In this document: piece by piece, positions 6,572 through 59,069 of the stretch
How the letters are laid out: each line of letters begins with the position of its first letter
Numbering within the stretch: the stretch's first letter is position 1
Assembly: GCA_032718475.1 (NCBI GenBank)
Contig: JAUCBJ010008182.1
Span: 1-64,000 of the forward strand
Origin: Nemertoderma westbladi
Lineage: Eukaryota; Animalia; Xenacoelomorpha
DNA: 64,000 nt
Reading direction: 5' to 3'
Notes under the pieces: model-generated
Databases searched by the model: none
Seen by the model: the letters and a program-made list of their open reading frames with translations, nothing else
What the model was told of the DNA's origin: nothing
Made by a program: the position numbers and the translations under genes

Positions 6572-6597
6572 AGAGAGTTTAATCGATTGGGGGAGCG

Positions 6598-24989: not shown

Positions 24990-25115
24990 TATAGAATTAT
25001 ATTCCCTAAATGCCGTGGATTTTCAAAATTTTATTTTATTCGGATTAACTTTGTAAAGATTGCTTTGAGTTCTCATTCGTATTGGTTCTATCATTTGTGC
25101 ATCTATCGGTCAAGT

Positions 25116-25202: not shown

Positions 25203-25259
25203 GTACAGAATTTCAACTCATTTAAATTAACCGCTACAAATTAATTGCATTTGTCTGTA

Positions 25260-26922: not shown

Positions 26923-26933
26923 GTAGGAATATG
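26923..26933 (+). other. Primer-binding-site position, non-tRNA type (GTAGGAATATG)
   Basis: Abuts the LTR end, lacks TGG, and is the exact reverse complement of LTR 25858-25868 CATATTCCTAC. Confidence 0.65.
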
Positions 26934-27647: not shown

Positions 27648-27731
27648 ATGACTGTAATTAGTACCGTTTAGATATAAATACGGTAAACTCGATACTTTGA
27701 CACTCACTTTACTTGACTTACAACTACCGAA

Positions 27732-35869: not shown

Positions 35870-37563
35870 ATGGAGAAAGGGATACAAGGAGAGCCGAGAT
35901 GGGGATATGATATCCAAGAGGAAGCGGCAGCTTCATTCGAACGATTTGGAGCAAAAGACTACACTATATTTGGTATAAAGGAATTATCGGAAAGTACAGC
36001 GAAGCTCGCAAAGACAGCAATGCCTTTACTCGAGCAGGATTTAGCATATTTCGAGACGTGTATCTTCGCTGTCTTATCGAAAGACCATCTATGTTTACAT
36101 TGTTACCCTATGAAGGAGAACGTATCGTGGAGATTATGGATGAATCACGGCAGACGCGTGCGCCTATCGGTCACCTTGGTGATGAATTCGAAGTAACTAC
36201 TACGATCGCCGACGATCCTTTAGAGGAACTTCTTGAGATAGAAAGGAACCTCCCGAAGAAATCTCAGACGGAGATTCGACAACTTGAAGCAACAGATGCT
36301 ATAGTTTGTATACAACCTTCAGAAACCTACCAACCCATAGACCCAGACGATTACGATTATAGTATGGGAGGAAGCGCTCGACCGATTGGAGATCTTATAT
36401 ACGAACGAGTGTGGTACCCTGCCAATACGATGTGTAGTAAATGTGGCGTCGCTGGACATCATATGGCAAAGTGCAGTGGAAAGCACATTACTACGACTCA
36501 GCTAATCTGTGGATGGTGTGGGGATCAAGGGTCTCATACCTTTTATACTTGCTGGAGATTTATGGCCCAATGTACTTATTGCAATATAAAGGGACATCGA
36601 GCATCTGAATGCCAACTAAGAGACATACCCTATGAACACGAATCTGTAAAACTCGTGAGGAAATTATTTGACGAGTGGGAAGATTTAGCCGACGAACATG
36701 TATCAGCACAAAGAAGACGGTTTCCGATGAGAGCGCATCTCGGATTTTGGGCGGTAAATCCTCAAACGATGAGGTCGGAAGGATATATCTCCGCTATGCC
36801 CCAATATGACGAACTTATCGAGGTTGTCGATATTTTGCCCCACGACAGCGGATTTCGAGTGGTGCGCGAGTATCTGTTACAGATTCACCCGGATAACAAA
36901 AACACGTGGAATTTTCAGAAAGTCGTAAATCGTATCACGTATGGTGAATTTGATCGTTTCCGAACCGAAAAGCGGAATAAAGGAGCTTGGTTAACCGTCG
37001 CATGGGCGTACCGAGCCGCGTTTTACCATAAACGTATACGAGCGAGCGTATTCGAGGAAGAGGAGGTCCTAGAGGCGACGAATATACCAGCCACTCCGGT
37101 TGCGCCGTCTGCACGTCACCCTCGGGAGGACGGGCAGGGTAGGATCATACGGGTCCAGAAGGTGGGCCAACAATTGAAGAAAATTATTAATGTGGAAGAA
37201 CGCAAGGGAGTTGAGCCGACTATTCGAGTTACTCGGGATACGGTATCACTTCCAAGAGAACCGGTAGGAGGATCGGGACATACACCAGCTGATCAACAGG
37301 GGGCGCAAGCTACTCTTGGGTCTGCGTCGTCCGCCTTTCGCGAGTTCCCAGACGTTCTACCAACTGTAGCGACAACTGATCGGTCACGAGGAATTGGTCG
37401 AGGTTTTGGGATGCCAAATAGACGAATTTGTGAGGAAATAGTCGCACCGTCTCTTAACGTCCCAAGTAAACCAGTGACTCGCCCCATTAGTCCCATATCG
37501 CGAGCAAAGTCACCTGTGCGCAGTTTTCGAGGACGCGGCAGGGCTCGATCTACTAAGCGATAA
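35870..37563 (+). pseudogene. ORF3 copy 1, with ~2-kb internal deletion removing the N-terminal and exonuclease domains
   Basis: First ~48 codons match 49876 onward, then sequence resumes at the equivalent of about 52048 out of frame. The zinc-knuckle half 36058-37563 remains open. Confidence 0.88.
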
Positions 37564-38355: not shown

Positions 38356-40280
38356 TATAGAATTATATTCCCTAAATGCCGTGGATTTTCAAAATTTTAT
38401 TTTATTCGAATTAACTTTGTAAAGATTGCTTTGAGTTCTCATTAGTATTGGTTCTATCTATTGTGCATCTATCGGTCAAGTGGTTCAGTAGCTCAGTTGG
38501 TAGAGCGTTGGAAATTATATGTGTAGTAGGTATCGAGTTCGAATCCTAGTAAGTGCGAATTATTTTTTGTGCAGAATTTCAACTCATTTAAATTAACCGC
38601 TACAAATTAATTGCATTTGTCTGTACCAATAAGGCTGTAGTTATTTGATTGTAACCAATGTCGTGCAAGTTATATATTAGCTGGACCAATAAGCTATCTT
38701 TAAAACCTTGTTAGAACCCATAGAACAATCGAGAATTTTCTCGATTGATTGCAGCACAAATTTAGTATATAAAGGTGCGATTCGTTCATTAGTTATCTCA
38801 ATCTTATATCCCAATCTTTCTCAGATTACCTTATCAATATTCTGTCGTGCTTAGTTCATTCTCAGATTACATTGTATTATAATTGTGTCTTCTGTAATAA
38901 AGTCAGAATATTCTCTCAGCTTTTCTGTTTTACTATGAATTCACTACGGTGAACAAACTCAGGGACAGGATGGCCGGCTAGAGATCGGGCCGCAGCAATG
39001 AACGGGAACATCACGGGAATGTAGACGAGAGACAACCCGCAATACCATTTTAGAGTTATTCGCCCATCGCCTGAAAGGTTAGACAGCGTTCGATCCTTGC
39101 TACCTAAGTATAAGACCAAAAGATCAAGAGGTAGACGTAGTGACACGCTGCAAGCCTAAAATTACATCATAGGGACTGTACTGTCTTGATTCAGGAAAAC
39201 CCACAGTAGACCTTCACATTCCTACGGGGGGAGGGATAGCGCAGGCAGATACTAGTACGCAGATAGGACGTAGGCACACCGGTACAAGGCATACACATTG
39301 GTTAGGGTGCAGCAAACTGTACGCTTAACTCTTGCTAAGTACAGGTGCGTCTGTGACTATTTGCCGTGCAACGGTGTCCATTGCATCAGAACTTGTAGGC
39401 TAGGGGGGTTGCTGTGTTTTCACCTGAATTGGGATTGTACCGTTCAGGCGGTAGGGCAGTTTACGCTAGGCGCAAATAAATTGAGGCTATCAGGGATATA
39501 CTAACATCTACCGTGTCCCCGCCAAAGCCCTAATAGGAAGTTACCCGGACTACCTGGGTGACTAAAATTCTAGATAGGAGCCAGGATAGCTATTAGTACC
39601 CGTACGCCTACAGTAGTAAACTAACACATCTCTTCTTAGTATCAGGGACCTGGTACCTAAAATTGCCGAATTCTGGGCGTAGTATTAACCTTATGCCTGA
39701 ATTTGAGTCCTGGAAATACGCAAGAGGGGAAGGAACCTTATCATTCGTGAGTATTGGACCTACAAGTTATAAAATTGGAATATTCGTAAAATGCACACCG
39801 TACCCAGTAATTATATATGTGAAGGAGCAAAACTGTTTTGACCGTTCAGAATTAACACACGCGCGTTAGAAATTATTTACACCTCAAAATATATAAAATT
39901 AACTTTTGTCCGTACTGTGCTTTGCCCGCTAGTTAGACATCTCCAAATATCTGCCTCTGTACCTAGCTAGCGTCCCTTTGCCCAACCATATAAATCACAC
40001 CGCGGCAAAGTCTACGAGCCCCTTAGTCCGTCAGTGAGTCAGCCTGATTTTAGGATTCGCTGCGCGGGATTTTGTTTTATCGAAGTTTGTCTGCTCGTAG
40101 ACTGTTTTCTGCCTCACCGGTTATAAGAGATCGATACTGCAATATATTCGCTTACTTAGAGTTTACTGTTTTGGTGAGAAGGTCGGATTTATGATTTGAT
40201 TTACAAACTTTACAGTAGGATATTGCAGGTATTGTTACCGTCCCTTCCGATAGTAGGAATAGGCGTATCTCTTCCAATTA
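38356..40280 (+). repeat. LTR2 (1925 bp), diverged from LTR1 and LTR3
   Basis: Same termini, many substitutions and a strongly different segment after the TATA box. Pol III cassette retained at 38482-38568. Confidence 0.94.
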
Positions 40281-40539
40281 ATTGTATTTAATTTACCTTT
40301 TGATAACGCATATCGTTATCCGATTTATTTGTTATAAAATTGGCCGCTAGGCTAATTTTATTATATACTTATTCCGTGACATTTATTTGCTGTAAAATTG
40401 GCCGTTTAGGCTAATTTTATCCATCTGCTATAAAATCGGCCGGTAGGCTAATTTTATAAGACTGTAATTAGTACCGTTTAGATAAATACGGTAAACTCGA
40501 TACTTTGACACTCACTTTACTTGACTTACAACTACCGAA

Positions 40540-43500
40540 ATGAGTGACAAACAAGACTATACGAAGAATACACCTACCGACTATGACTCGTGTGACGCGG
40601 ATAAGTCAGCAGCGGAAGGACAACAGGGGAAGACTCGTGAGCCTACCGAACCTACGCCGTGTGCGTCACCAGTACATCCAACGGGAGTACCGGATGCCGT
40701 AGTACGAGGCGACGGCAGGACCGAGGACTTTCTAACTGTTCCGCAACCTAGATACAGGGAAACGGAAATGGTAAGTTCAGCAGGAAGTCAGGAAAGCGTT
40801 GTTAGGAGCGTCGGTGGTTACATGGCGCATATTACCAGGAGTATTGGAGAAGGCCAACGCATATTAGACGGGTTGACCGCTCCGATGTCTCGATTCGAAT
40901 TCTACACCCTCCAGGTTAGAGTACAGAGTAAAGTATATAAGTCCGTAGATAATCTAGTTGGCCTACAAGATCTAGCTAGACAGAGACAGGACATGGATAC
41001 TCAACTTAGAATCCTCGAGAAACTAATGATCGCTAGAGAGAAACTGATTCAGTTTAAGTCGACGATTAGACAGATACAACAGGAACAAGCAGACCAGTTG
41101 TTAGGTGAGTCAGTTTCGGACGAATTATTACAGCCCGAGGAAGAACAGGAACTGTACCGACTGGATGGACAATTGAAACATCTGACGGACCACTTACGTA
41201 TGTGCGGCGAAGACGTCGGCGATTTGGAAACCGTGCCGGAATATACGAGGGAAACTTCACCCGTACGAATCGAATCGGCACCGGGAATACTGGATCAATC
41301 TCTGGTGAGTATTCGTAGCGAAATCGGCGAGGGAATTATGGCTACGTCAGAAATTGCTCGACAACAACAGCTCTACAGACAACAACAGGAGATGGAGGAA
41401 CAAACTCAACTTCTAATGCTACAAGCAGCAGTAGAGGAAGAGAAGCTACGCGTTGCAAATATAGCAAGAATCTCCCATCTGCAAGAACAAGCCGAGTTGG
41501 AAGCAGCCGAGATGGAAAAGTTAGAGTTGGACATTGCGCAACAAACGGCAGCAGCGGCAGCGGCTGAGTCAGAGCGACAAGCGGCAGCGGCAGCGGCAGC
41601 GGCGGAGTTAGAGAGAAACCGGTTAGTTTTAGAAGCCAGAGCAGAGATGAAGACACGGCAAATAAAGGCCCAGTCAGCTATACGACAAGCGGAACTCGAG
41701 GCGCAACAACAACAAACGGAACAACGCGAGAAAGAAGTTAAACTTCGTTTCGAACTTGAGAAGAAGGCGAGAGAATTAGCCAACGCCAAGGAAGACCTGG
41801 ATCTACAAGCCCGCGATCGATCGATGAGATCTCGAGACGGACATGACTTGGACCAGATAGAGGTAAGACATCGCCACATTCAGGAACGAAAGAAAGAAGG
41901 AAGCGTAGGAGCACCCGGACGGGAACGACAATTAGTAAAGGACTTGTGTCAACGATTCCCACAGGTAACTCATATGTTTGCACCGGTTACGACTAAGGAA
42001 CCTGTTTCGATTGCGGGTAGTAGTGATATTTCTCCTATCCATGGTGTGACGGAACACAGGTTTGTTATTCCGGACAAGTTTACACCGCCAAGAGCAACGT
42101 CGTCGCCTATTCCGAGGGTCAAGGTAAGTAACCCACCGATTACAGATCGTAGTAGTTTATTAGTCGGACCTGCACTACTGACGACTAAACAGGTGAGTCC
42201 ACCTCTGACGCCAAAACCTGTTACACACTACGCTTACCCAATGACGTTTAGGCCAACAAGGCCTTTGGATTCAAACGCCGTTACTCGACTACCGGTCCAA
42301 TTTACATCGCAATCTACGACTTCGAGGAAGACTTGTGAGCCTACCGAACAACGGAGAACAGTGGATACGCGACCGTTCAACCAGTTTGCATCGCAATCTA
42401 CGACTTCGAGGAAGACTTGTGAGCCCACCGAACAACGGAAACCAGTAGACGATGTTTCGAAACGGAATGTTAGAATTCGTACGGCGCAACGGACTCGAGC
42501 ACGTCGACCACCGTATCCAGGTGACAGTAGTACTTCGAGCGAGTCGGATTACCCGGAACGCGAGGTATTTAGAACAGGAGCGGCCGACAAATGTAAACGT
42601 GAGCGTTCGGATAATTCATTTATCGACAATCCTCCACAGAATAAACCAACACAAAAGGCGTTACAACCAACAGACGCGATCAGTACACAACAGTTCGCCG
42701 ACATCCTGCGACCAGTTGTCAACAAATTGGCTCAGATCGAGGAGCGTCTGGAGGAAGGTTACACCGACAGTTCGAGAAATTCCGAATTCGAACACAATAG
42801 ACACCCGAAGGAACCACAAAGACCGGTACCTTCAAAACACACATCGTATCAGGGAAAAGCGCCAAGAAGGGAGAACATCAACCAGACTACCAACCAAGGA
42901 CGCGAAACTCTGAACGTTGCAGAGGAGATAGCGAAATTCGCAGCCAGACAAGGATTGCCGGTGCAACAACCACCGAAGTTTTCCGGTAGCTCAAAACACT
43001 GGCACACCTTTGTAGACTATATCGAATCCCAGATCGCCGTGTGCGCCTTTACATCACGGGAGAAGTTTAATTACCTGCTCCAAACGTTGTCAGGAGAACC
43101 TAAACGTTTGGCAGAGACCTTCGTTGGTGTACCGGACGCCTTTGAATTAGCGTACGATCGTTTAACTTCGATATACGGAGGTACAGTGAGCATGGCCAGG
43201 TCAGTAATAGAGGAACTCTGTAAGGGAGGGGCTATCACTAAACCCGTCGACTTATTAAAACTAGCTGACGAGATAAGGAACGCTATCACAACTTTAAGAT
43301 CCATTGGACAACTTGATTACGGGAATACCCCTACAGTCCTATTAAAGATCATAGGACGACTCCACCATCGACTTCGTCGGGAGTGGAGAAAGGTCGAATA
43401 CCAGCTAGAAGAGCGTGGAGGATTCTTAAAATTAGAAGATGTGTACCTTTTAATATCCAGGGAGGCAGTAGTAGAAACTCGATCTAACTACACCGACCAG

Positions 43501-46395
43501 CACATCGTGGCAGAAGGAATCACATTGCCATCCTCCAACCGACAAAAACCCCAGACAACATCCACCAAGACGGCCACTTACGCCACACCGACGGAATCAC
43601 GACAATTCTCGGACGGTAGTAGAGTATCTGCGCCCATTGGGACAAAACAGACGAGACAGCAACTTGGTACCGACTTCAGTGGCTGCCAATACTGCGAGCA
43701 TTTAGGCAAGCGGTATATCGGTCACAAGTTACGAGGTTGTCGACAATTTCGCGAGTTGAACTCGGAAGAACGACGGCTGCAAATACGGCCATTGGACTCT
43801 TGTTGGCGGTGTACGCGACACGGACACGTCCGTAAAGATTGCCCAAATACCGACACTTGTCCATCCTGTGGACGCAACCACGACGGTCTGCTCCACACAG
43901 ACAGCCACACGCCGACAAAACGCTTCGCCAGGGAACACCCGGAAGCAGCAGCGAGATGTGATGCGGCCTACCGAAAACGAGAATCGAAAACGACTCCAAC
44001 CTTCGTGACCCATATTGAGGATTGCTTCTCAGAACAATCCGGATCGTCGGACGAAGAGTTAGAAGACGACGACGAATATTCCAATGGAGACGAACAACCG
44101 TCGATCGCGCTTCTGACTACTGACCAACTGAAGGGATTCAGTGTAATTCCGATTAAGATTACCGGCACAAAGGGGAGCAAGAGAATCTACGCGATTCTAG
44201 ATTCAGCCTCATCTCATAGCTACGTGGATGAAAAGATAGCTGACGTAGTGACGGATCTTAAACAAGGTAAGCGCGTCAGTTATACCGTAAGTAGTATGCA
44301 CGGACAGCGTGCAATACCAGTGACACGAGTTAAGTTGGACTTAGACTCTCTTCTTCCAAAATCGCAACACAGCGAGAGGGAGAGGTCTTTGTTACCCTTT
44401 AAAGATCTAACCTTTGCGGCCACGAAGGACTTTAGTAACCTACTAGGTCCAGTGCCGGAACAATCTCTAGAGGACCGTAAGTATTTCAGACACCTTGGTG
44501 TACCCGAATGTCCTGTCAATTATAGATCGGTAGCCATGCTGATCGGGACAGACCAATTCAACCTACATCAGGTGTGGGAAACCAGACCATCGGCAGTTGT
44601 AGCGGGAAACGCATACGCCTGCAGAACGCCGATAGGCTGGTATACTCGAGCGCCTGTGCGCACACTAGACGTAAGTGACGAGGAAGACGATGTACAGAGT
44701 ACATGTAGTTTATTAACTACAAATTCAATTCATTCCTTTTCACACGACGTGAACCATACTACACTACAGTCGACAAAACATGACAGACGTGTAACTAGTA
44801 TGATAAGTCACAAGGAGCAGCTAACCCACCAGGTGAGTTTAGAACTTGGGGAGAAGACGAGTCAGCTAGAGATTCCATCGACGACAGATGTTAGGCTTGC
44901 GAGTCTACCTACCCAAATAACCTCAACAGTGCCCGTCGATATCGATGATGACGCGTTGAGAAATCATCAAATGGAACAAGCCGCTTTGGACAAAGAATTA
45001 ACGGAGAAGACTATCAGGTGGTTAGAACAAGATACAGCTGAACCTGGTAGCTACGAACCTTGTATGTCAGAACAGGAGAAACAATCTCTGAAGATCATGG
45101 AAGATACTATCCGCCAGACGAAAGACATACATTATGAGGTAGGGATGTTATGGCGTAGCCAAAGTCCTAAACTTATAAACAACTATCCACTAGCCTTGAG
45201 ACATCTACACTCAATACGGCAACGTCTATTAAAGGACGAGAAAGCCCATCTGCAGTACAACACTCAGATGGAGACGTATTTGACAAAGGGATACGCTATC
45301 CGAATGACTAACCCGGAGATAGTGACAGACCAAACATATTACTTGCCACATCACTATGTGAGACACCCCGACAAACCAGACAAAGTACGCGTAGTCAACG
45401 ACTGTGCGGCTCTGTTTGAGGGAATGTCCCTCAATAGTGAGTTGATGGATGGACCAAACATGAATAATTATCTAATGGGGGTGATTATGCGCTTCCGTCA
45501 GCATCAAGTAGCCTTTACTTGTGACGTTGAAGCGATGTTTCACCAAGTGAGAGCGTTAGAGCGAGACAGAGACAGTTTGCGGTTCCTCTGGTACCCGGAA
45601 GGAGACTTAAGTTTACCACCGGCGACTTACCAAATGCAAGTTCGCGTTTTCGGTGCCAGAGACAGCCCAAATTGCACGATGTACGCCCTAAAGCAGGCCG
45701 CTAGAGATCAGAAACATCTATATGACCCAGAGATAATTAAAATCGTAGAACGTGACTTTTATGTAGACGACGGTTTACAGAGTTGCGACACAGTAGAACG
45801 TGCTACAACAGTAGCACATCAATTACGGGACTGCTTAGCGGGCGGAGGTTTTAACCTCACCAAATTCGCCTCAAACAGTGCCGAATTAGTAGACTCATTC
45901 GGGACGACTGAGCGTGGAGGTGGTGACATAGACCTAGAGTTCGAACCACTACCGACGACCAAGGTGTTGGGGCTCTTTTGGGACCCAAACACAGACAACT
46001 TTCGAGTGAAAGTGAGACTGGACAGTCAAGAGAACACACTGACAAAGAGATCATGCTTGTCAAAATTGAGCCGATTGTTCGATCCGTTAGGATTCATCAG
46101 TCCAGTGATACTGCAAGCTCGCATTTATATGCGCAGTATATGGAAGGATGGACTAACATGGGACGAGTCGATCTCATCAGACCAAGTGGACTTATGGAAG
46201 ACCTGGGAGGCGGAATTATCTTCGCTAGAGGATTATTCCATACCCAGGGTTTACTTTCCATTACAAAGTACATTTCCTGACAACTTGGAACTACACTGTT
46301 TTTCTGACGCCAGTGACAACGGTTTTTGTTGTGGCAGCGTACTTGCGCAGACAAGTAGACACAGACGAGTTCGATGTTTCGCTCATTACTTCTAA
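40540..46395 (+). CDS. BEL/Pao Gag-PR-RT, copy 2 (frameshift near 46325 in RNase H)
   Basis: Gag knuckles, ILDSAS, YVDD, KVLGLFWD, LFDPLGFISP, LHCFSDAS. Continues in the 46313 frame. Confidence 0.93.
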   Translation: MSDKQDYTKNTPTDYDSCDADKSAAEGQQGKTREPTEPTPCASPVHPTGVPDAVVRGDGRTEDFLTVPQPRYRETEMVSSAGSQESVVRSVGGYMAHITRSIGEGQRILDGLTAPMSRFEFYTLQVRVQSKVYKSVDNLVGLQDLARQRQDMDTQLRILEKLMIAREKLIQFKSTIRQIQQEQADQLLGESVSDELLQPEEEQELYRLDGQLKHLTDHLRMCGEDVGDLETVPEYTRETSPVRIESAPGILDQSLVSIRSEIGEGIMATSEIARQQQLYRQQQEMEEQTQLLMLQAAVEEEKLRVANIARISHLQEQAELEAAEMEKLELDIAQQTAAAAAAESERQAAAAAAAAELERNRLVLEARAEMKTRQIKAQSAIRQAELEAQQQQTEQREKEVKLRFELEKKARELANAKEDLDLQARDRSMRSRDGHDLDQIEVRHRHIQERKKEGSVGAPGRERQLVKDLCQRFPQVTHMFAPVTTKEPVSIAGSSDISPIHGVTEHRFVIPDKFTPPRATSSPIPRVKVSNPPITDRSSLLVGPALLTTKQVSPPLTPKPVTHYAYPMTFRPTRPLDSNAVTRLPVQFTSQSTTSRKTCEPTEQRRTVDTRPFNQFASQSTTSRKTCEPTEQRKPVDDVSKRNVRIRTAQRTRARRPPYPGDSSTSSESDYPEREVFRTGAADKCKRERSDNSFIDNPPQNKPTQKALQPTDAISTQQFADILRPVVNKLAQIEERLEEGYTDSSRNSEFEHNRHPKEPQRPVPSKHTSYQGKAPRRENINQTTNQGRETLNVAEEIAKFAARQGLPVQQPPKFSGSSKHWHTFVDYIESQIAVCAFTSREKFNYLLQTLSGEPKRLAETFVGVPDAFELAYDRLTSIYGGTVSMARSVIEELCKGGAITKPVDLLKLADEIRNAITTLRSIGQLDYGNTPTVLLKIIGRLHHRLRREWRKVEYQLEERGGFLKLEDVYLLISREAVVETRSNYTDQHIVAEGITLPSSNRQKPQTTSTKTATYATPTESRQFSDGSRVSAPIGTKQTRQQLGTDFSGCQYCEHLGKRYIGHKLRGCRQFRELNSEERRLQIRPLDSCWRCTRHGHVRKDCPNTDTCPSCGRNHDGLLHTDSHTPTKRFAREHPEAAARCDAAYRKRESKTTPTFVTHIEDCFSEQSGSSDEELEDDDEYSNGDEQPSIALLTTDQLKGFSVIPIKITGTKGSKRIYAILDSASSHSYVDEKIADVVTDLKQGKRVSYTVSSMHGQRAIPVTRVKLDLDSLLPKSQHSERERSLLPFKDLTFAATKDFSNLLGPVPEQSLEDRKYFRHLGVPECPVNYRSVAMLIGTDQFNLHQVWETRPSAVVAGNAYACRTPIGWYTRAPVRTLDVSDEEDDVQSTCSLLTTNSIHSFSHDVNHTTLQSTKHDRRVTSMISHKEQLTHQVSLELGEKTSQLEIPSTTDVRLASLPTQITSTVPVDIDDDALRNHQMEQAALDKELTEKTIRWLEQDTAEPGSYEPCMSEQEKQSLKIMEDTIRQTKDIHYEVGMLWRSQSPKLINNYPLALRHLHSIRQRLLKDEKAHLQYNTQMETYLTKGYAIRMTNPEIVTDQTYYLPHHYVRHPDKPDKVRVVNDCAALFEGMSLNSELMDGPNMNNYLMGVIMRFRQHQVAFTCDVEAMFHQVRALERDRDSLRFLWYPEGDLSLPPATYQMQVRVFGARDSPNCTMYALKQAARDQKHLYDPEIIKIVERDFYVDDGLQSCDTVERATTVAHQLRDCLAGGGFNLTKFASNSAELVDSFGTTERGGGDIDLEFEPLPTTKVLGLFWDPNTDNFRVKVRLDSQENTLTKRSCLSKLSRLFDPLGFISPVILQARIYMRSIWKDGLTWDESISSDQVDLWKTWEAELSSLEDYSIPRVYFPLQSTFPDNLELHCFSDASDNGFCCGSVLAQTSRHRRVRCFAHYF

Positions 46396-49213
46396 GGCTA
46401 AGACCATGCCTACTAAGTATATGACGACACCACGAGCTGAGCTACAAGCCGCAACCCTGTCAACCACCATCGTGAACCTTATACAGACAGAACTACAGTC
46501 GAGTTTACAGATATTTTATTGGACTGACGCGACGTTGGTTTTATTTTACATAAACAACGACATGCTTGAATTCAAGACATTCGTAGCTAACCGTCGCGCA
46601 GAAATTCTAGATCGTTCAATAAAAGAGGATTGGCGACATTGTCCCGGACCACAAAACCCAGCTGATATTGCGTCGCGAGGAATGATGCCTGAGGAATTCT
46701 GTAAACCGGAGAACAAAGAATTTTGGCAACACGGACCCCAATTCTTGCAGAAATCGACACAAGATTGGCCTCCGTTATACGACAACAAATCTAACACTAT
46801 CCCTAAGGACGCCGAAATCAAGAAACCAAAAAAGGGGAAGACAAAGAAAAGGACGACGGCGGCAAAACTCAAGAAAAAACCGAAGGCGAAATGGAAGGAT
46901 ATAACTTCAAAGGTCAAGAGAGGAAGACTTGCGAGCCTTTCTACACCAGGCATATCGCCAGACGGTCAACCAGACATATCGCCAGACGGTCAACCAGACA
47001 TATCGCCAGACGGTCAACCAGACACGTTACTAGACAGCCAACCAGACATTTTACCAGACATATCACAAAATGTTCTACCAGACGCTAGTAACACACTGAC
47101 AAACAGTAAAGCCGCAGTTTCTCTATTGGAGCGGCCTTCTATTGACAAACAACCAGATACGTTACTAGACGTATCGCCAGACACATTACTAGACAGTCGA
47201 CTAGACATTTTGTCAGAAACATCACAAAATGTTCTACCGGACATTAGTAATGTATCGACTAACAATAAAGCCGCAGTTTCCCTATTGGAGCGGCCTTGTA
47301 TTGACAAACTACCAATTTTGACACACTTGAGCAACCATAAGCACGGTGAAACTTCATGTATTACAGATGTGGGTAGTACCTACGCTAATGTAAATACAGG
47401 TGTTACTTTGCGCTCAAGAGACATACCGAACTTGCAACCTATGGTGAAACCTGGGATTAATATCGGCAGAAAAATAAGTTTACCGAAACCCACTGATCCC
47501 ATAGAGTTCAAACCACCATTAACGATCGACTTACAAAGTACTGACAATCAAGGTAAGAAGACGAAGAAGGACAAATTACTTGTAGACCCGGACGGATCAA
47601 CAGTCAACAAGGGAATACCTACCGGCGGACCCGTGGGCCCTTCTAGTAAATCAAAACCTTCCAAGTTCTCCATTGACTTACCTGATGACGTCACAAATAC
47701 TTACGTCGACCGTATTGTAAACCTAACAGATTCTTGGTCAAGCGCTTGCCGAAAATTAGCGTGGATTGTACGTTTTGTACAATACGTTAAAGGCAAACGC
47801 GACTTTACACGTCGACTTACATTGGCTGAGATTGACAGGTGTGAGATTAAATTAATTCACCATTACCAACTGCGATATTTCGCGCGCGAATTCACATCCA
47901 TAAATCAAGGTCAACCAATCAAGTCGTCACCAATACTGAGTTGGAGTCCGATTATTTATAATGGCTTAATTTGTCATAAATCTCGGCTTCAAAACATTGA
48001 CTTTAACACAAACTTTAGGTACCCAATAATAATACCGCAACATCACGAACTACAACGTGCAATGATACTGGACGCACATTTACATCTGAAACACGCTGGA
48101 AGACACCACTGTCTTTCCTACTTACGTACAAGATTTGTATTAATTAGACCCAGTAAAGCGTTAAGTTCAGTGACGCGTACGTGTATTATTTGTAAAAAGG
48201 TACATTCTAGAATAGGTACCCAAGAAATGAGTGAACTACCACAAGCACGACTTCAAGCATTCAGACCACCTTTTACAGAGACTGGAATTGATTGCTTTGG
48301 TCCCATGCATACGAAACGTGGACGTATACTAGTAAAACGCTGGGGACTGATTTTCACATGTATGTCCAGTAGGGCAGTTCACATTGAACGTGTGATGGAT
48401 CTTTCCACCAACGCGTTTATACTAGCACTGCGGCGATTTATCGCTAGACGCGGACTAGTAAAATGCTTGTACTCAGACCAAGGGACAAACTTTGTTGGTG
48501 CTCGGAATGAGATTGCTAGAGCCTTTAAGAAATTAGATCATGATCAAATCTCGAACGAACTGCAACCTCACAAGATTGTTTGGAAGTTTAATCCTCCAGA
48601 TAGTCCTTGGAGAGGCGGAGTCTGGGAGAGATTGATTAGATCTATCAAGACAGCCATGGCAAAGGTCATTCCAGTAAACCACATACTGACAGACGACCAA
48701 CTGACAACATTGTTTGTTGAAATCGAGGCAATACTAAATACTAGACCAATAGTATTAGTACCCGATGACAAACAATCTCAGTTCGCTTTGACACCGGCAC
48801 ACCTGCTTATGCAGGCACCGACCACATTGACGCCGATTTCTATTCCAATAGAAAGCGATAGCTACGGTAGAAAAGCGTGGAAAATCACGCAACTACTGGC
48901 TAACAAATTCTGGGAAATATGGCAAAACCATTATTTGCCCTCTATTTCTGCCAGAACAACTTGGTACAATAACACCCGCGCATTAAAGCCGGGAGATCAC
49001 GTGCTGTTAGCAGAAGTGAATCTAAAAAGACGCTTCTGGATAACAGGTGTAATTTTAGCCACACATCCATCTATGGATGGAGTGACAAGGACTGTGACGG
49101 TACGGACAATTGACGGTCGTACAGTAGACAGACCGACTCAACGTCTCGTACTTCTTGAAGAGACTCGTAACGAGTCTGGAGACTACAAATCTCCACCTAA
49201 TACTAGTAAATAA
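46313..49213 (+). CDS. BEL/Pao RNase H, long linker and integrase, copy 2
   Basis: PRAEL, YWTD, FVANR, WRHCPGPQNPADIASRG, then a ~300-aa repetitive insert, HHCC and DDE. Repaired Gag-Pol is about 2890 aa. Confidence 0.93.
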   Translation: MTTVFVVAAYLRRQVDTDEFDVSLITSKAKTMPTKYMTTPRAELQAATLSTTIVNLIQTELQSSLQIFYWTDATLVLFYINNDMLEFKTFVANRRAEILDRSIKEDWRHCPGPQNPADIASRGMMPEEFCKPENKEFWQHGPQFLQKSTQDWPPLYDNKSNTIPKDAEIKKPKKGKTKKRTTAAKLKKKPKAKWKDITSKVKRGRLASLSTPGISPDGQPDISPDGQPDISPDGQPDTLLDSQPDILPDISQNVLPDASNTLTNSKAAVSLLERPSIDKQPDTLLDVSPDTLLDSRLDILSETSQNVLPDISNVSTNNKAAVSLLERPCIDKLPILTHLSNHKHGETSCITDVGSTYANVNTGVTLRSRDIPNLQPMVKPGINIGRKISLPKPTDPIEFKPPLTIDLQSTDNQGKKTKKDKLLVDPDGSTVNKGIPTGGPVGPSSKSKPSKFSIDLPDDVTNTYVDRIVNLTDSWSSACRKLAWIVRFVQYVKGKRDFTRRLTLAEIDRCEIKLIHHYQLRYFAREFTSINQGQPIKSSPILSWSPIIYNGLICHKSRLQNIDFNTNFRYPIIIPQHHELQRAMILDAHLHLKHAGRHHCLSYLRTRFVLIRPSKALSSVTRTCIICKKVHSRIGTQEMSELPQARLQAFRPPFTETGIDCFGPMHTKRGRILVKRWGLIFTCMSSRAVHIERVMDLSTNAFILALRRFIARRGLVKCLYSDQGTNFVGARNEIARAFKKLDHDQISNELQPHKIVWKFNPPDSPWRGGVWERLIRSIKTAMAKVIPVNHILTDDQLTTLFVEIEAILNTRPIVLVPDDKQSQFALTPAHLLMQAPTTLTPISIPIESDSYGRKAWKITQLLANKFWEIWQNHYLPSISARTTWYNNTRALKPGDHVLLAEVNLKRRFWITGVILATHPSMDGVTRTVTVRTIDGRTVDRPTQRLVLLEETRNESGDYKSPPNTSK

Positions 49214-49875: not shown

Positions 49876-52800
49876 ATGGAGAAAGGGATACAAGGAGAGC
49901 CGAGATGGGGATATGATATCCAAGAGGAGGCAGCAGCGCCATTCGAAAGATTTGGAGCCAAGGACTACACTATATTTGGTATAAAAGAATTATCGGAAAG
50001 TACAGCGAAACTCGCGAGAACTAAATATGACTCGAACGTATTAAAGAGAAGGCAAAACGCATTAAACGAAAGAATCGAAAGTTTGCGCCAAACCTTCAAC
50101 GAACTTTACCCGTACGACGCTTTGTGTGATACGGGAGACATTAGCGAAGACCCCGATACTGAAATTAGTCGTTTGTATCATACCATGCAATACCTAAAGG
50201 CGCACGAACCTATGCCCACGGTAAGAGATGAATTCGATGGAATGCATCTTTACAGACGAACTCGAGGGGACGATAGAGAAACCAAGGAAGCATTTTCAGT
50301 TTATAAACTTTATTATCAATGCGGTTCTTGTATGCGCGAACAACGAAATGCGATTCCGATGCGTTTGAATAAGGAAAATCCCGAACCGATATTGGCGAGG
50401 TGTTCGAATCATCAACAACTACGCTACCAGGAAGGAGGGTATCCTTTATCGAATCCATATCATTCATTTGCTATGACCGGACCAAAGGCGGGAGAAACTG
50501 TCATTTACCCACCTAAGGTTGTTGAACCCGATGTATTTGAACTTACGCTGGACGAGGCGAATCAGTCAACCCGCGAAAAGAAAGAAGCTCTTAGCCTATA
50601 CAGAGCCTACAAGGCTTTCGAGAAAGGTGAGATGGAAGAATGGGGTGGAAGACTCGCGAGCCTACCTTGCCATTGGACGTCACACGATCAAACTTCAGCT
50701 AAGGAGATGACACCGGAAGTTTTCGAGAGCATAAACTTTGCTCAAAACGTTATTCAGAGACTACAGATTGCATCCCCGGAGAGGCCAAGAGAAATGCAAC
50801 CGTATAGTACTTCAACTACGAAACCATTGAGTACGACACTCAATTTCCCTATTAGTATACCAGTCCGACAGGATACGACGTACGAAATACCCATCGTGGA
50901 TCATCCAGAAATCATTTCAAACTTGGAGTTTCTTCCTGCAGTTGTTTTCAGCGATATGAGCAAGATATATGATTTACGTAGACATATTACTCAAAAGGTC
51001 GTGTACAACGTTCCACCTCATATTCAAGATTTCAAGGAACTGGAAAGAGCTGGTGCCGATATAGCTCCGAGTAATCTGAAAGGATATCTAACCAAGACGA
51101 TTCGTTTATGGATTGGAACCGGAACCTTCGAGTCGGATACAGATATTGCCGCAGATTGGCGAGGTAAGGTTATTCGTTTCGAAGATGATAAGGACATAGA
51201 GAAGATTTGGCAACCTTCGGAAGAATTGTTGGATGAATGGACTAGGACGTTTAGATCGTTTCAGGAAAACGGTTATATGTTTTACGATAACGAGGGCGGC
51301 AGTCATCAGCAGAGTTTGACTTCTAAGACTATACAGATTAGAGCGGCGGACGGAGTCCTGCACGTTTTTAGTAGACAGAGGAGCGACAAACGAATGCCGA
51401 TACCTCCAGCGAATACAAAGCGACACCATCTTATCACCGATATAGTAAAGAAGATGGACCAAGCTTGTAATATTGACGCTAGAATGCTACCGAAGATGGT
51501 AAGAAACATGATTTTAGATAAAACTGTTGTAAAGGTTGGATCAGGAGTAAGGGAGGATTTAATTAGCGACTTCGCCGGCATGACGGACAGCGATGACCGA
51601 CTACCGACACCATACGTCGACACTCGACCTCTTATTCTGTGGTCTATAGAACAGGGATATTTTCGTGAGTATAATACTCAGAAGACTGGAACTGGATACA
51701 TTTCCTACCTGTTATTCAATTGGGATTATAAGGAAGGTAAGAGAAACAAGTATATTGAAACTTATGGAGAAGGTGATACTCCAGATATGAGTGAGTTTGA
51801 ATCACAGCTTAAATGGAGAGGATGCGTGTATTGGGCTATTACGTCACCTCCAAGAGCGGTCTTACAATATTATTTAGCAATAGAGTCGTCAGTGAATGTT
51901 TGCCTAATCGCCGACATTGTGTCTCGGACTCTCAAAAGACATCCACTTTGTCTCGGAGAAGATCATACGTTCTACATGGAAGGGAGAATTCGTACCGACG
52001 TGTTTAGATGATTCCTTGAACCCTTCTACAACTCCGACGCTCAGTGTAATGCCTTTACTCGAGCAGGATTTAGTATATTTCGAGACGTGTATCTTCGCTG
52101 TGCGGGATCTCTTATCGAAAGACCATCTATGTTTACATTGTTACCCTATGAAGGAGAACGTATCGTGGAAATTACGGATGAATCACGGCAGACGCGCGCG
52201 CCTATCGGTCACCTTGGTGATGAATTCGAAGTAACTACTACGATCGCCGACGATCCTTTAGAGGAACTTCTTGAGATAGAAAGGAACCTCCCGAAGAAAT
52301 CTCAGACGGAGATTCGACAACTTGAAGCAACAGATGCTATAGTTTGTATACAACCTTCAGAAACCTACCAACCCATAGACCCAGATGATTACGATTATAG
52401 TATGGGAGGAAGCGCTCGACCGATTGGAGATCTTATATACGAACGAGTGTGGTACCCTGCCAATACGATGTGTAGTAAATGTGGCGTCGCTGGACATCAT
52501 ATGGCAAAGTGCAGTGGAAAGCACATTACTACGACTCAACTAATCTGTGGATGGTGTGGGGATCAAGGGTCTCATACCTTTTATACTTGCTGGAGATTTA
52601 TGGCTCAATGTACTTACTGCAATATAAAGGGACATCGAGCATCTGAATGCCAACTAAGAGACATACCTTATGAACACGAATCTGTAAAACTCGTGAGGAA
52701 ATTATTTGATGAGTGGGAAGATTTAGCCGACGAACATGTATCGGCACAAAGAAGACGGTTTCCGATGAGAGCGCATCTCGGATTTTGGGCGGTAAATCCT

Positions 52801-53601
52801 CAAACGATGATGTCGGAAGGATATATCTCCGCTATGCCCCAATATGACGAACTTATCGAGGTTGTCGATATTTTGCCCCACGACAGCGGATTCCGAGTGG
52901 TGCGCGAGTATCTACTACAGATTCACCCGGATAACAAAAACACGTGGAATTTTCAGAAAGTCGTTAATCGGATTACGTATGGTGAATTTGATCGTTTCCG
53001 AACTGAAAAGCGGAACAAGGGAGCTTGGTTAACCGTCGCATGGGCGTACCGAGCCGCGTTTTACCATAAACGTATACGAGCGAGCGTATTCGAGGAAGAG
53101 GAGGTCCTAGAGGCGACAAATATACCAGCCACTCCGGTTGCGCCGTCTGCACGTCACCCTCGGGAGGACGGGCAGGGTAGGATCATACGGGTCCAGAAAG
53201 TGGGCCAACAATTAAAGAAAATTATTAATGTAGAAGAACGCAAGGGAGTTGAGCCGACTATTCGAGTTACTCGGGATACGGTATCGCTTCCAAGAGAACC
53301 AGTAGGAGGATCGGGACATACACCAGCTGATCAACAGGGGGCGCAAGCTACTCTTGGGTCTGCGTCGTCCGCCTTTCGCGCGTTCCCAGACGTTCTACCA
53401 ACTGTAGTGACGACTGATCGGTCACGAGGAATCGGTCGAGGTTTTGGGATGCCAAATAGACGAATTTGCGAGGAAATAGTCGCACCGTCTCTCAACGTCC
53501 CAGGTAAACCAGTGACTCGCCCCACGAGTCCCATATCGCGAGCAAAGTCACCTGTGCGCAGTTTTCGAGGACGCGGCAGGGCTCGATCCACTAAGCGATA
53601 A
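49876..53601 (+). CDS. ORF3 (~1241 codons, one in-frame TGA at 52009-52011): unknown N-domain, DEDDy-like 3'-5' exonuclease, three zinc knuckles, RG/RS tail
   Basis: The 711-aa and 504-aa ORFs share a frame with a single stop between them. Motifs FYDNEG, TIQIRA, LPKMVRNMILDKTVVKVGSGVREDL, YVDT, YYLAIES; CSKCGVAGHHMAKC, CGWCGDQGSHTFYTC, CTYCNIKGHRASEC. Confidence 0.8.
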
Positions 53602-54270: not shown

Positions 54271-56203
54271 TATAGAATTATATTCCCTAAATGCCGTGGA
54301 TTTTCAAAATTTTATTTTATTCGGATTAACTTTGTAAAGATTGCTTTGAGTTCTCATTCGTATTGGTTCTATCATTTGTGCATCTATCGGTCAAGTGGTT
54401 CAGTAGCTCAGTCGGTAGAGCGTTGGAAATTATATGTGTAGTAGGTATTGAGTTCGAATCCTAGTAAGTGCGAATTATTTTTTGTACAGAATTTCAACTC
54501 ATTTAAATTAACCGCTACAAATTAATTGCATTTGTCTGTACCAATGAGACTGTAGTTATTTGATTGTAACCAATGTCGTGCAAGTTATATATTAGCTGGA
54601 CCAATAGCTATCTTTAAAACCCCGTTAGAACCCATAGAACAATCGAGAATTTTCTCGATTGATTGCGGCACAAATTTAGTATATAAAGGTGCGATTTGTT
54701 CATTAGTTATCAATCTCTATCTCAATCTTATACATTCATTATCTCAGTGCATTCTATCTATATCTTTCTGATTTCATTAGTTATTATCTTATCTGTTTGA
54801 TTTTGTAATAAAAGTTAGAAATACTTGTCAAACTCAGCCCTTTTCTATCTGTTTTATCATGGATTCACTACGGTGAACAAACTTAAGGGACAGGATGGCC
54901 AGCTAGAGATCGGGCCGCAGCAATGAACGGGAACATCGGGGGAATGTAGACGAGAGACAACCCGCAATACCATCTAGAGTTATTCGCCCATCGCCTGAAA
55001 GGTTAGACAGCGTTCGATCCTTGCTACCTAAGTGTAAGACCAAAAGATCAAAAGGTAGACGTAGTGACACGCTGTAAGCCTAAAATTACATCATAGGGAC
55101 TGTACTGTCTTGATTCAGGAAAAACCGCAGTAGACCTTCATATTCCTACGGGGGGAGGGAGAGAGAGCAGAGATACTAGTACGCAGATAGGACATAGGCA
55201 CACCAGTACAAAGCATACAAATTGGTTAGGGTGCAGCAAACTGTACGCTTAACTCTTGCTAAGTACAGGTGCGTCTGTGACTATTTGCCGTACAACGGTG
55301 TCCATTACATCAGAACTTGTAGGCTAGGGGGGTTGCTGTGTTTTCACCTGAATTGAGATTGTACCGTTCAGGCGGTAGGGCAGTTTACAGCTAGGCGCAA
55401 ATAAATTGAGGCTATCAGGGATATACTAACATCTACCGTGTCCCCGCCAACGCCCTAATAGGAAGTTACCCGGACTACCTGGGTGACTAAAATTCTAGAT
55501 AGGAGCCAGGATAGCTATTAGTAACTGTACGCCTACAGTAGTAAACTAACACATCTCTTCTTAGTATCAGGGACCTGGTACCTAAAATTGCCGAATTCTG
55601 GGCGTAGTATTAACCTTATGCCTGAATTTGAGTCCTGGAAATATGCAAGAGGGGAAGGAACCTTATCATTCGTGAGTATTGGACCTACAAGTTATAAAAT
55701 TAGAATATTCGTAAAATGCACACCATACCCAGTAATTATATATGTGAAGGAGCAAAACTGCCTTTGACCATTCAGAATTAACACACGCGCATTAGAAATT
55801 ATTTACACCTCAAAATATATAAAATTAACTTTTGTCCTTACTGCACTTTGCTCGCTAGTTAGACATCTCCAAATCTCTGCCTGTACCTAGCTAGCGTCCC
55901 TTTGCCCAACCATATAAATCACACCGCGGCAAAGTATACGAGCCCCTTAGTCCGTCAGTGAGTCAGCCTGATTTTAGGATTCGCTGCGCGGGATTTTGTT
56001 TTATCGAAGTTTGTCTGCTCGTAGACTGTTTTCTGCCTCACCGGTTATAAGAGATCGATACTGCAATATATTCGCTTACTTAGAGTTTACTGTTTTGGTG
56101 AGAAGGTCGGATTTATGATTTGATTTACAAACTTTACAGTAAGATATTGCAGGTATTGTTACCGTCTCTTCCAATAGTAGGAATAGGCGTATCTCTTCAA
56201 TTA
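54271..56203 (+). repeat. LTR3 (1933 bp)
   Basis: Near-identical to LTR1, followed by TSD CTCGA. Pol III cassette at 54397-54483. Confidence 0.95.
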
Positions 56204-59069
56204 CTCGATGATACGACCTGTCTGCCACCGCTTACGTGGAAGATCTGATTCCACAATAAGGACCATGTCTCCGGCGCTGACGTTTTCTTGCTGCGCAAAC
56301 CACTTGGTTCGAAGTTGTAGCGTAGGCAGATAATGTTTTTCGAAATGGTCAGCGAAACAACGGGATAATAACTGCATAAGTTGCCAAGTTTGTCGGCAGT
56401 ATTTGTCTCCGTCCGTGATTTCCGATTGTGGGAGCATGGCTACAGGTTTCATCAGTAGGAAATGCGCGGGTGTTAGCGCTTCTAGGGAGTCGGGACTCGA
56501 TGAGACTGGCATAAGCGGTCTCTCGTTAAGATAGGCAGCGATTTCTTCCATTAACGTCCGCAAAAGTTCGTCGGTGAGATACACGCGGCAGGGCACTATA
56601 AAGTGAAATGCGGTCTTCACGCTCGCTCCTTATTAATCTCTCCCAACTTCCTCCCCACCAAGGGGCATCGGCGGCGTTGAAGGTCCAGCTAGATGCTGTT
56701 ACCCTTAGCTGATCGTCCACCTGTCTTTGGTTCCAATCTTTAACATAAGCTTTGATCTCATAATTGGCGCCAATGAAGTTCGTTCCCTTATCAGATCTCA
56801 TCGTGTTACTAGTTCCAAAGCGAGCGATCTGTCGTCGTAAGCTTAATAGGAAGCTGTTGGTAGATAAATCGTTCACCATATCGAGATGGATAGTTCTACA
56901 AGTCATACAAACAAAGATGACACACCATCTCTTGACTATAGTCCTAGCACGATATACTTCAATAGGGCCAAATAAATCCACACCGGTATTAGTAAAGGGT
57001 GGTTCATAGAAGCTTACTCGTTCCCTAGGTAATTCTGCCTCTCGCTGTGTTAAAGGCCTACTGAATGCTTTCCTACAGGGTATACAGTTCCTAAGAACTT
57101 GGTTCAGAGCTCTACGGGGTTTATGGAAATAATAGCGAGTTCGAATTTCGCTAAGAACTCGTTCTCTACCAGCATGGTAAAGCCTACTTTGAACATCTAC
57201 AATCATCTTGATTTGTATTTCAAGATTTCTAATGAGTTTGGGAAACTTAGTGTCAAAGGATAATGGAGCATTAGTTAATCTCCCTCCAACACGTATTAAC
57301 CCATCTATCATTGTGCTAGAGAAACGACCCCTTAAGCGCGTCTGTGGATTTCTCAACAACAGGAAATACTTATCGGAATCTTCATAGCATTGCAGGAGTC
57401 TCAGTATCTGCTTATTGGTTTCTTCATGCTCTTGATAACTGAGCTTTTCCGTCAGAAACCTATCCGATACTTTATATTTGGGAAGATCTTTAATAGCATG
57501 GACCTGCGTGGATGTCAGTGGAGCGGTATCACTAGCGATCTTCGTCCTGGAGTAGTGATGATGGAAGCATCGCTTCAAATACACAACGGCCTTACAAAGC
57601 CGATTCCAGGAGCTATAGTGATTTATTGCTCTCTGCAGGAGAGGTGAGAGTTCCTGCGAGACGTCTGGTGTTCCAGATTTCCAGTCTCTTTCTCTAATTT
57701 CCACAACAGATTTATTTGTGGCGGGGAAGTTTAGATCCACAGCGTCATCCCCGGAAATGTGTAGTACAGACAGATCTATCACGGGTTTAAATAACTTTGA
57801 TTTACTCGTTCGGGTTTTAGGTTTGACTTTCTCCGCTCCCTTGGCTTGTCTAATCTCAGCCGTGGTGAGATGAGGAGGCCATTCATCCTCTTCTTTACTT
57901 AGGAAGTCGGGTCCTCCTAACCAGTCTGGAGTATCTATCAGTTCTTGAGGAGTTGCTCCTCTGGAGGCGATGTCGGCTGGATTAATCGTCCCAGGGCAAT
58001 GTCTCCATTGATCTACATTAGTGCGACTAAGTATAATGGCTACTCTGTTGGTAACGAAGACGCTGAACTGACAGACTTCATTGGTTATATACTCCAAAAC
58101 GAGTAAAGCATCAGTCCAATAGACAGTTTTCTCCAGTGGATAGTCGATCTGTTCTGTTACATTCCGGCCGATGGCTGTAGCGTATAGAGCCGCCTTTAAC
58201 TCCGCTCGAGGAACTCGTAATTTATTATTTATCAAGGCCTTAGAGGTAACCAAGGCAACTTTGATTCCATCCGGAGTTTCAACCCTCAGGTAGGCTACTA
58301 TACCTATTCCCATATCGCTGGCGTCTCCAAACACATGGAGTTGATAGGAAACGTGGGGAGAACGTGACCAAAATATGAACGGGAAATCCTAAAGTTGTCG
58401 ATGGATGGTAGAGATCTTCCCATTTCATCCACTTCTTTAGTAGTTCTCCCTTAAGTGGATCGTCCCACGAGTGGTTTTCAAGCCACATTTGTTGCACTAA
58501 ACTCCGAGCAACCAATATAACTGGGCTAATAAATCCCAATGGATCGAAATAAGTGCTCAGGATACTTGAACAAATCCGTTAAGTTCGAACTGGATTATCT
58601 CGCTGTTTTAGCTGGAAAAACAGGATATCTCTCTCCGTGTCCCATTTCAAACCAAGCATCTTGGTTTCCGGAAGATCGTCTTTGATAAGGTCTAGATCTT
58701 TAACACCTCGGTCTTCTACGGGGATCGATTCCAGAAACTCACGGGAGTTATTAGTGAATTTGGTTAGTCGAAATCCACCATGTTTCAAGCACTCTACCGT
58801 TCCCTTAGCAACATCAATGGCTTCTTCCACCAATGGGAGGGACTTTAAATTGTCGTCCATGTATATATCCCGTTTGATGTTGTCGATAACCGCTTTAGAG
58901 AAGGCGTCTCGGTTGTCATCAGCAGTGGTACGCACTACTGAACAAGCGTTCGAGGGGCTCGAGATGATCCCGAAAGCCTGGATGGTCATCCAGTACTCCA
59001 CCAGTTTTTGGTTGAGGTCTCCTTCAGGCCACCACAGAAATTGTAGGCTGTCTCGATCCCTATCCAGCG
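56204..59069 (-). pseudogene. Host BEL/Pao pol (RT, RNase H, integrase), frameshifted, different family
   Basis: YMDD, KMLGLKWD, FDPLGFISP, FGDAS, PRAEL, NPADIASRG, GVDLFGP, SDKGTNF, GGSWERL, LTPAHFL across several frames. Interrupted at 59070. Confidence 0.93.

Follow-up and report, generated by a model that had tools for sequence, protein, structure and literature searches.

A third open reading frame with a predicted DEDDy-type exonuclease domain and zinc knuckles in a giant BEL/Pao retrotransposon of Nemertoderma westbladi

The window is the whole 64,000-nt stretch analysed, positions 1 to 64,000 of contig JAUCBJ010008182.1 (forward strand) of the xenacoelomorph Nemertoderma westbladi. 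It contains a giant BEL/Pao retrotransposon in two copies, A and B. Copy B carries a third open reading frame (ORF3) at 49876..53601 (+), with the ATG at 49876, the final stop at 53599-53601 and 1241 codon positions in one frame. ORF3 is separated from the polymerase gene (pol) of copy B by a 662-bp spacer, and is a separate frame behind the BEL/Pao integrase, in the position of the envelope gene (env). An in-frame TGA at 52009..52011 (+; codon 712), private to copy B of the window, divides the frame into 711 + 529 codons and falls between the exonuclease-like region and the zinc knuckles. An initial annotation, made from the letters alone, gave start, end, frame and position of ORF3 correctly; its open frame of ~1241 codons is not found, the TGA having been overlooked.

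The N-terminal 450 residues (49876..51225, +) are assigned to no family; Pfam and PHROG searches of residues 1-375 gave nothing below E 0.01. The predicted DEDDy/WRN-like 3'-5' exonuclease domain comprises residues 451-695 (51226..51960, +). Candidate catalytic codons (+) are D471 (51286-88), E473 (51292-94), D561 (51556-58), Y666 (51871-73) and E670 (51883-85). The motifs read initially are all in place: FYDNEG at 51280-51297, TIQIRA at 51328-51345, LPKMVRNMIL at 51487-51516, GSGVREDL at 51538-51561 and YYLAIES at 51868-51888. Three CCHC-type zinc knuckles (residues 866-925; 52471..52650, +) follow the exonuclease-like region, as had been described, with the pattern CX2CX4HX4C at 52471-52512 and 52609-52650 and CX2CX5HX4C at 52546-52590. 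One of them is seen by Pfam (zf-CCHC, E 0.003), short of its cut-off. The C-terminal tail (53446..53598, +) is basic and of low complexity, with 10 R and 3 K but 2 acidic residues among its last 51; of the tail first described as RG/RS-rich and basic, the basic character holds, and RG/RS dipeptides are confined to the last ~20 residues. No transmembrane-like stretch is present in ORF3 (best 19-residue Kyte-Doolittle mean 1.38), in agreement with the earlier reading. No match to a fusogen (env) was obtained for ORF3 in Pfam or PDB.

By self-comparison the element is a tandem dimer, long terminal repeat (LTR) 0 - copy A - LTR 1 - copy B - LTR 2, with 5-bp target-site duplications outside (24985..24989 and 56204..56208, both +, identical 5-mers). 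LTR 0 (24990..26922, +; 1933 bp, set by self-BLAST and junctions) and LTR 2 (54271..56203, +; self-BLAST) are identical at 1929/1933 positions, 4/1933 being different. LTR 1 (38356..40280, +) is common to both copies and 96% identical to the outer LTRs. LTR ends are TA...TA rather than TG...CA, within limits set by the 5-bp target duplication. The purine tract before the LTR is weak; a long purine run occurs instead after the candidate self-primer, at 25869. Copy A has gag-pol at 27717..35207 (+) in one frame, with ~1.25 kb (end of reverse transcriptase (RT), RNase H) missing relative to copy B, and an ORF3 remnant at 35870..37563 (+) consisting of 46 codons, a 2.03-kb deletion that takes the whole exonuclease-like region, and the knuckle half. 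Copy B has gag-pol at 40525..49213 (+) in two frames; the switch, between 46229 and 46395, lies in RNase H. It lacks 548 bp (26923-27470 in copy A), primer site included. Both copies are broken: A by the pol and ORF3 deletions, B by the lost primer site, the frame change and the stop. The structure is a recombinant dimer of two differently broken copies sharing the middle LTR, and a recent insertion. Copy B measures 17,848 bp, or ~18.4 kb with the 548-bp leader present only in copy A, which fits the size first given.

The element is a member of BEL/Pao (Belpaoviridae) by its order of protease, then RT, RNase H and lastly integrase, its domains, its LTRs and its target duplication. Copy B gag-pol reads DUF1759, knuckle, protease with DSAS, RT with YVDD, RNase H, integrase and DUF5641; Pfam matches of the polyprotein are PF03564, PF05380, PF17921 and PF18701. 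The polyprotein matches 377 BEL/Pao-type polyproteins (best E 5e-113). The RT region is 44-47% identical to BEL/Pao polyproteins, at most 47% in the tree set. In an RT tree (FastTree, 121 rows, midpoint root, without named reference elements) the element stands on a long branch (1.05) among 121 relatives. Belpaoviridae are described with a genome of 4.2-10 kb, LTRs of 0.2-1.2 kb and an 18-nt tRNA primer site (PMC8742986; PMC3118150). Shared with BEL/Pao are Gag with DUF1759, protease, YVDD RT, RNase H (PF05380), integrase with DUF5641, LTRs and the 5-bp duplication. Unlike the described members, the element has a size of ~18 kb, 1.93-kb LTRs, TA...TA ends, a self-priming-type site, a third ORF that is not env-like, and a long branch. 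A search of Rfam over 24900-56300 gave no match. Between RNase H and integrase, at 46900-47400, there is a long in-frame insertion of tandem repeats (12-, 24- and 159-nt units); 27-nt repeats coding for alanine, arginine and glutamate in gag (28722-28935) likewise enlarge the element.

The fold of residues 451-695 was assessed by learned protein features, by profile and ordered-motif tests and by structure prediction. In the ESM Atlas, 30/30 named matches of residues 451-695 are in the PF01612 set (recognition 2801), as are 24/30 matches of residues 371-711 (recognition 2338). The score is 0.93 with 173-177 shared features, and one cluster is named Werner syndrome-like exonuclease; cluster taxa carry no information on origin. 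A WRN-like profile was composed of 17 bacterial loci (short, weaker full-length PF01612 matches) and 30 of 120 further proteins; for one of the 17 loci the best PDB matches are WRN, mut-7 and EXD2. Against it, ORF3 aligns in hhalign with E 0.018 and 0.006, above 100/100 shuffles, in the ExoII half only. An ordered eight-block WRN-type test gave a score of 46.4 (z 5.0), matched by 0/1000 shuffles and 0/226 slices of BEL polyproteins. Block order and spacing are as in WRN-type proteins, all but one block lying where the initial annotation had stated or implied.

A 61-row alignment with bacterial WRN-like and RNase D-like proteins has no variation at D471, E473, Q487, K553, D561, G605, K622 or Y666; in it E670 sits in an aspartate column. 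The D-x-E of ExoI (D471/E473) is invariant also in a 16-row alignment. ExoII, with K553 and D561 invariant, is the strongest block in every profile test. An AlphaFold model seeded with the 61 rows has a mean predicted local distance difference test (pLDDT) of 69, a predicted template-modelling score (pTM) of 0.63 and DEDDy topology, with D471/E473 on a strand and Y666/E670 on the long final helix. Its Foldseek match is EXD2 (E 2.8e-4). Its structural neighbours are apicoplast polymerase, NrnC, RNase D, Nibbler, WRN, EXD1 and Egalitarian (Z 11-13); in most rows 154-181 residues superpose with root-mean-square deviations of 3.4-4.4. Because the seed sequences already carry the fold, the seeded model shows compatibility only; the BFVD and PDB Foldseek matches derive from it and are not counted as independent.

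The domain resembles the PF01612 group (WRN, EXD2, Nibbler/mut-7, RNase D, NrnC) in the order and spacing of ExoI, two next strands, helix-strand-ExoII, a D-containing strand and a C-terminal helix, the likeness being closest in the helix-strand-ExoII block. It differs from that group in an identity of 13-19%, the absence of a Pfam match, insertions of ~30 and 20-25 residues, and E for the ExoIII aspartate. No PF01612 subgroup stands out, Z values being tied.

A number of results weigh against a DEDDy assignment. For the exonuclease-like region, a set of 5.8 billion proteins yielded 1631 candidates (lengths 391-1245 only), 0 at E 0.001; 1.84 billion representatives gave 0 matches, and PDB sequences a single unrelated match (E 0.04). 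Pfam and PHROGs were blank on 7 and 4 sub-fragments of ORF3, respectively, and PF01612 did not match ORF3 even at E up to 10. In the Atlas, a score of 0.9 is attained also by 4-10 in every 100 shuffled proteins. In hmmsearch, ORF3 has 2.9 bits (rank 3/1123), from ExoII alone, below one shuffle and one BEL polyprotein. In the block test, DEDDy controls (RNase D, PolA, three RNase D-like proteins) reach 81-110, about twice the ORF3 score, the best natural BEL slice reaches 45.1, near the 46.4 of ORF3, and the ExoIII block scores -1.8; the block set was chosen with the query already seen. The fourth residue is E, not D, a departure from the canonical DEDD set; the Y666/E670 register was obtained in only 6/24 trial alignments, and the 16-row alignment sets ExoIII at Y630/D634 instead. 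AlphaFold without an alignment gave pLDDT 30.7 and no usable fold, and the seeded model is circular and without a control. No relative of the region was found in metagenome contigs, viral contigs, plasmids or phages; prokaryote genomes gave one 22-residue chance match only.

In sum of these tests, residues 451-695 are probably a very divergent DEDDy fold with D471, E473 and D561 as predicted metal ligands. These three residues align firmly with the putative family; the placing of the candidate ExoIII at Y666/E670, with E for D, varies with the alignment used. Catalysis with E670 in place of the fourth aspartate is, given the fold, fairly probable. The DEDDy/WRN-like assignment made initially is supported by the Atlas features and by the profile and ordered-motif tests; fold prediction agrees only when DEDDy-seeded. 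In the AlphaFold-Foldseek check proposed with it, the unseeded model gave no usable fold, and the agreement of the seeded one is circular.

Variation was compared over 49700-53700 in contigs from four public runs (X1, X2, X3, X5), one of which may be the source of the window DNA itself. The variant counts that follow rest on the best-supported 40 of 246 places. At the stop site 52009-52011, all covering depth has another letter in 3/3 runs covering it (contigs: X1, n=2; X2, n=11; X3, n=2; X5 is without coverage there). Because the TGA is absent from these contigs in all three runs, the stop is private to this copy and the ORF3 of the family most likely continuous. Programmed readthrough at codon 712 is ruled out by the same contigs.

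ORF3 is kept by purifying selection. Among the in-ORF variants, 25/38 are synonymous, where the transition/transversion mix predicts 11.0 (P 2.6e-6), and 27/38 are at third codon positions; the 38 are the 40 minus one upstream row and the stop row, with neighbours in one codon scored singly. Residues 451-695 have 6 variants, 5 synonymous and 1 nonsynonymous (residue 456). D471, E473, D561, Y666 and E670 are unchanged among these best 40 of 246, in agreement with the expected conservation of catalytic acids among copies. None of 4 indels is within ORF3. One X3 contig over 49935-51821 has 25 differences and 0 gaps (23 counted among the 40 places), and two contigs crossing ExoIII differ only at places already included. 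Between copies A and B, the ratio of nonsynonymous to synonymous substitution rates (dN/dS) is 0.061 in the ORF3 knuckle half (514 codons) and 0.025 in the ORF3 N-terminus (45 codons), compared with 0.121 in gag-RT and 0.165 in the integrase part. Neutral evolution, named initially as a ground for rejection, is not what these values indicate. A divergent ORF3 subfamily is represented by an X1 contig of 981 nt (about 82% identical), which spans 50712-51692 and shows 181 differences and 6 gaps. The deletion joint of copy A ORF3 recurs in runs X2 and X3. Exonuclease-less forms of ORF3 circulate, because that joint is present in both; an assembly artefact as its source is ruled out on the same ground.

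ORF3 is accessory among BEL/Pao elements. ORF3 relatives were found in 0/80 BEL loci from metagenomes, only 16/80 of which have at least 1.5 kb behind the integrase; among the loci with a repeat pair, 16/19 have <600 bp between integrase and LTR.

Nine copies of a 16-nt motif are present in copy B (40628, 42326, 42410, 46922, 49499, 50647, 53622, 53916 and 53955, all +). Together with six in copy A they make 15 matches in 27820-53970, against 0.01 expected. The motif is confined to the + strand and to internal regions, and occurs in gag, pol, ORF3 and untranslated parts in differing reading phases. Its 8-nt core is self-complementary, a palindrome in 4/15 copies; the other 11 deviate only by C-to-T or A-to-G. 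If G-U pairs are allowed, all 15 cores could still pair with themselves as RNA, a property that only 4/24 possible single changes preserve; the search pattern itself permitted C/T and A/G letters, and CpG decay may account for part of this. No common hairpin was found among the motif copies. The motif may be a dimerisation, packaging or protein-binding signal.

A self-priming-type site is present in copy A. The candidate primer-binding site (26923..26933, +; only in copy A) lies directly behind LTR 0, and the candidate self-primer (25858..25868, +; second copy at 55139) is the exact reverse complement of these 11 nt. The expected count of such a complement is 5.5e-4, with 1/200 shuffles matching under relaxed offsets, and it closes the minimum-energy fold of 25850-26945. 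No TGG start of a tRNA-type primer site occurs behind the LTR, where the 11-nt self-complement is found; no tRNA genes were found in the 64-kb window. Self-complements behind the LTR are shown by 2/7 relatives without sign of such an ORF3: locus L068 (682-1107) has an 8-nt complement (2/200 shuffles), and L052 (566-941) an 11-nt complement with an uncertain LTR end. From these two metagenome loci, self-priming may be more widespread in BEL/Pao than described. Self-priming is described for Tf1 and Tj1, in which a site directly behind the 5' LTR is complementary to the LTR interior, as here, and for Tf1 a cleavage-site idea for the primer end is given (PMC4600332). Tf1 and Tj1 are Ty3/Gypsy-type elements of fission yeasts, unlike the BEL/Pao element (PMC4600332).

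As to function, ORF3 is tentatively read as a selected accessory gene encoding a likely divergent DEDDy exoribonuclease with knuckles that blunts host small-RNA silencing or nucleic-acid sensing. Viral DEDD exonucleases clear immune-triggering RNA. Silencing is chosen as the target because ORF3 is accessory among BEL/Pao elements and by analogy with these viral enzymes. For its expression ORF3 would have an mRNA of its own, subgenomic or spliced; candidate acceptors lie near 49435 and 49835. The protein would combine a DEDDy 3'-5' exoribonuclease with the three zinc knuckles and the basic tail. Knuckles and tail would carry the enzyme to RNA, possibly to the transcript of the element itself by way of its nine copies of the 16-nt motif. 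The enzyme would trim or destroy RNA 3' ends (small RNAs, aberrant RNA ends), with blunted silencing or sensing of the element as the outcome. ORF3 would act in trans, and deleted copies could therefore ride along. A wider version is speculative and unlikely to hold in all its parts: a giant, deep-branching BEL/Pao lineage that has self-priming and TA...TA ends for tRNA priming and TG...CA ends, with nine RNA signals and a knuckle-guided DEDE exoribonuclease that would read them or host small RNAs as an anti-silencing factor. Of three functions initially proposed, counter-silencing is plausible, primer maturation is weakened by the 2/7 relatives without sign of ORF3, and proofreading is unlikely.

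The domain might instead have a DEDDy fold with weak or dead nuclease activity and serve as an RNA adaptor, in the manner of Egalitarian, EXD1 and Maelstrom. With its knuckles it would bind the 16-nt motif for export, localisation or packaging of genomic RNA, in a role like that of CERV for Cer1. This is possible, though on balance unlikely. It agrees with the fourth acid being E in an unstable register, with Egalitarian and EXD1 among the neighbours of the seeded model, and with the nine dispersed same-strand motifs of copy B in differing frames. Dead members of the DEDD family usually lose several acids; here three of the canonical acids remain, as does the ExoIII-like tyrosine, and none of them is altered among the best 40 of 246 variant places; Gag, moreover, possesses a knuckle region of its own. 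Inactive DEDD derivatives that retain RNA binding (PMC5408684) and a retrotransposon accessory protein required for RNA export (PMC10309623) are known. CERV of C. elegans Cer1 is likewise a non-env accessory protein of an LTR retrotransposon, and acts on the RNA of its element as is proposed here for ORF3; unlike ORF3, it is an export factor, and the spliced mRNA that encodes it belongs to a Gypsy-type element (PMC10309623).

Trimming of the element's own ends is improbable. The enzyme would be packaged via the knuckles and would, for example, shorten a 3' overhang as far as the 11-bp self-primer duplex in reverse transcription. Tf1 generates its primer end through cleavage by its own RNase H. 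Against primer maturation stand the self-priming-type sites of 2/7 relatives without sign of such an ORF3 (8 bp in L068, 11 bp in L052). In its favour are the exact 11-nt LTR complement in a family described as tRNA-primed (PMC8742986) and the 3'-end processing of element RNAs proposed for rotifer ORF3s (PMC5408684).

That the region is not DEDDy, its motif likeness having arisen by chance in a conserved protein of other fold, is decidedly improbable. The blank standard searches, the failed unseeded model, the weak hidden Markov model (HMM) score and the shuffled proteins at Atlas 0.9 speak for it. Two methods without shared data nevertheless indicate one family at the same residues, the Atlas feature count and recognition are within the range of true members, and the seeded model fits the whole domain including the insertions.

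Proofreading of reverse transcription for an 18-kb genome, as by nidovirus ExoN in RNA replication, would suit an element roughly double the size described for BEL/Pao, 4.2-10 kb (PMC3118150, PMC8742986), and the A-family polymerase proofreading domains among the top structural neighbours (tied with RNases), but is very improbable because the available text on Ogre and Burro, of 16-30 kb, names no enzyme of this kind (PMC6431247), ORF3 is separate from RT and not fused to it, and a single copying round of 18 kb is estimated to be far from an error threshold.

The exoribonuclease reading is not without parallel. The initial annotation did not know the architecture and implied that it had no precedent, which does not stand: DEDDy ORF3s are known in the bdelloid rotifer LTR clades Juno and Vesta, and are shared with Athena/Terminon retroelements (PMC5408684; also PMC5718144, PMC6431247). 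Rotifer ORF3s are described with a DEED motif, without a transmembrane segment, untested for activity and without significant departure from neutrality (PMC5408684). The present ORF3 shares with that of Juno/Vesta its place as a frame of its own after pol where env would be, a predicted DEDDy-type fold, the lack of a transmembrane segment and the change of one acid. It departs from it in its BEL/Pao carrier, its 1241 codons, its long N-terminal part, and its three CCHC knuckles and basic tail. The word 'zinc' does not occur in the available text of the rotifer paper, which gives only a Cys-His-Cys motif in Vesta2/5 (PMC5408684). The acid change is at the fourth position here (DEDE) as against DEED in rotifers, the ORF3s being compared by description only. 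Selection is purifying here, in contrast to no significant departure from neutrality in the rotifer ORF3s examined (PMC5408684). An exonuclease ORF3 in the env position is already known from Juno/Vesta, there without knuckles. New are the BEL/Pao carrier, the three-knuckle fusion in a 1241-codon protein without detectable relative, and the clear purifying selection; new too are the accompanying self-priming-type site, the TA...TA ends and the dispersed palindromic signals. In the literature, most subscription journals being outside the search, no BEL/Pao case of such an exonuclease and no knuckle fusion was found, only the rotifer work. The word 'exonuclease' is absent from the main texts of PMC3118150, PMC554778, PMC2774666 and PMC13524379.

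Nematode Cer elements of the BEL group may have an exonuclease-like stretch near env; if so, this would lower the novelty. Why some retrotransposons have exonucleases in the env position is a question raised by the rotifer cases, which lacked a selection signal. The present case extends it to another superfamily, with strong purifying selection and with a module for RNA binding that hints at an RNA substrate, in an abundant family that includes both exonuclease-bearing and exonuclease-less forms. The isolated exonuclease-like domain has an unbroken frame in this copy. Action on small RNAs, if true, would make ORF3 an element-encoded enzymatic counter to silencing by PIWI-interacting RNAs (piRNAs) or small interfering RNAs (siRNAs) in an animal; a dead nuclease would give mobile elements a counterpart of the Egalitarian/EXD1-type adaptors.

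Other features of the window are as follows. An inverted second BEL/Pao pol fragment at 56526-58388 (-) begins directly after the right target duplication of the dimer. A non-LTR retrotransposon ORF with endonuclease and RT is present at 3797-7423 (-), and RT alone at 22022-23551 (+). A 479-codon open frame at 61586-63029 (-) is GC-rich (59% at 62001-63000) and has no Pfam match. An imperfect inverted repeat at 7741-8231 (490 bp, 72%) is possibly similar to a miniature inverted-repeat transposable element.

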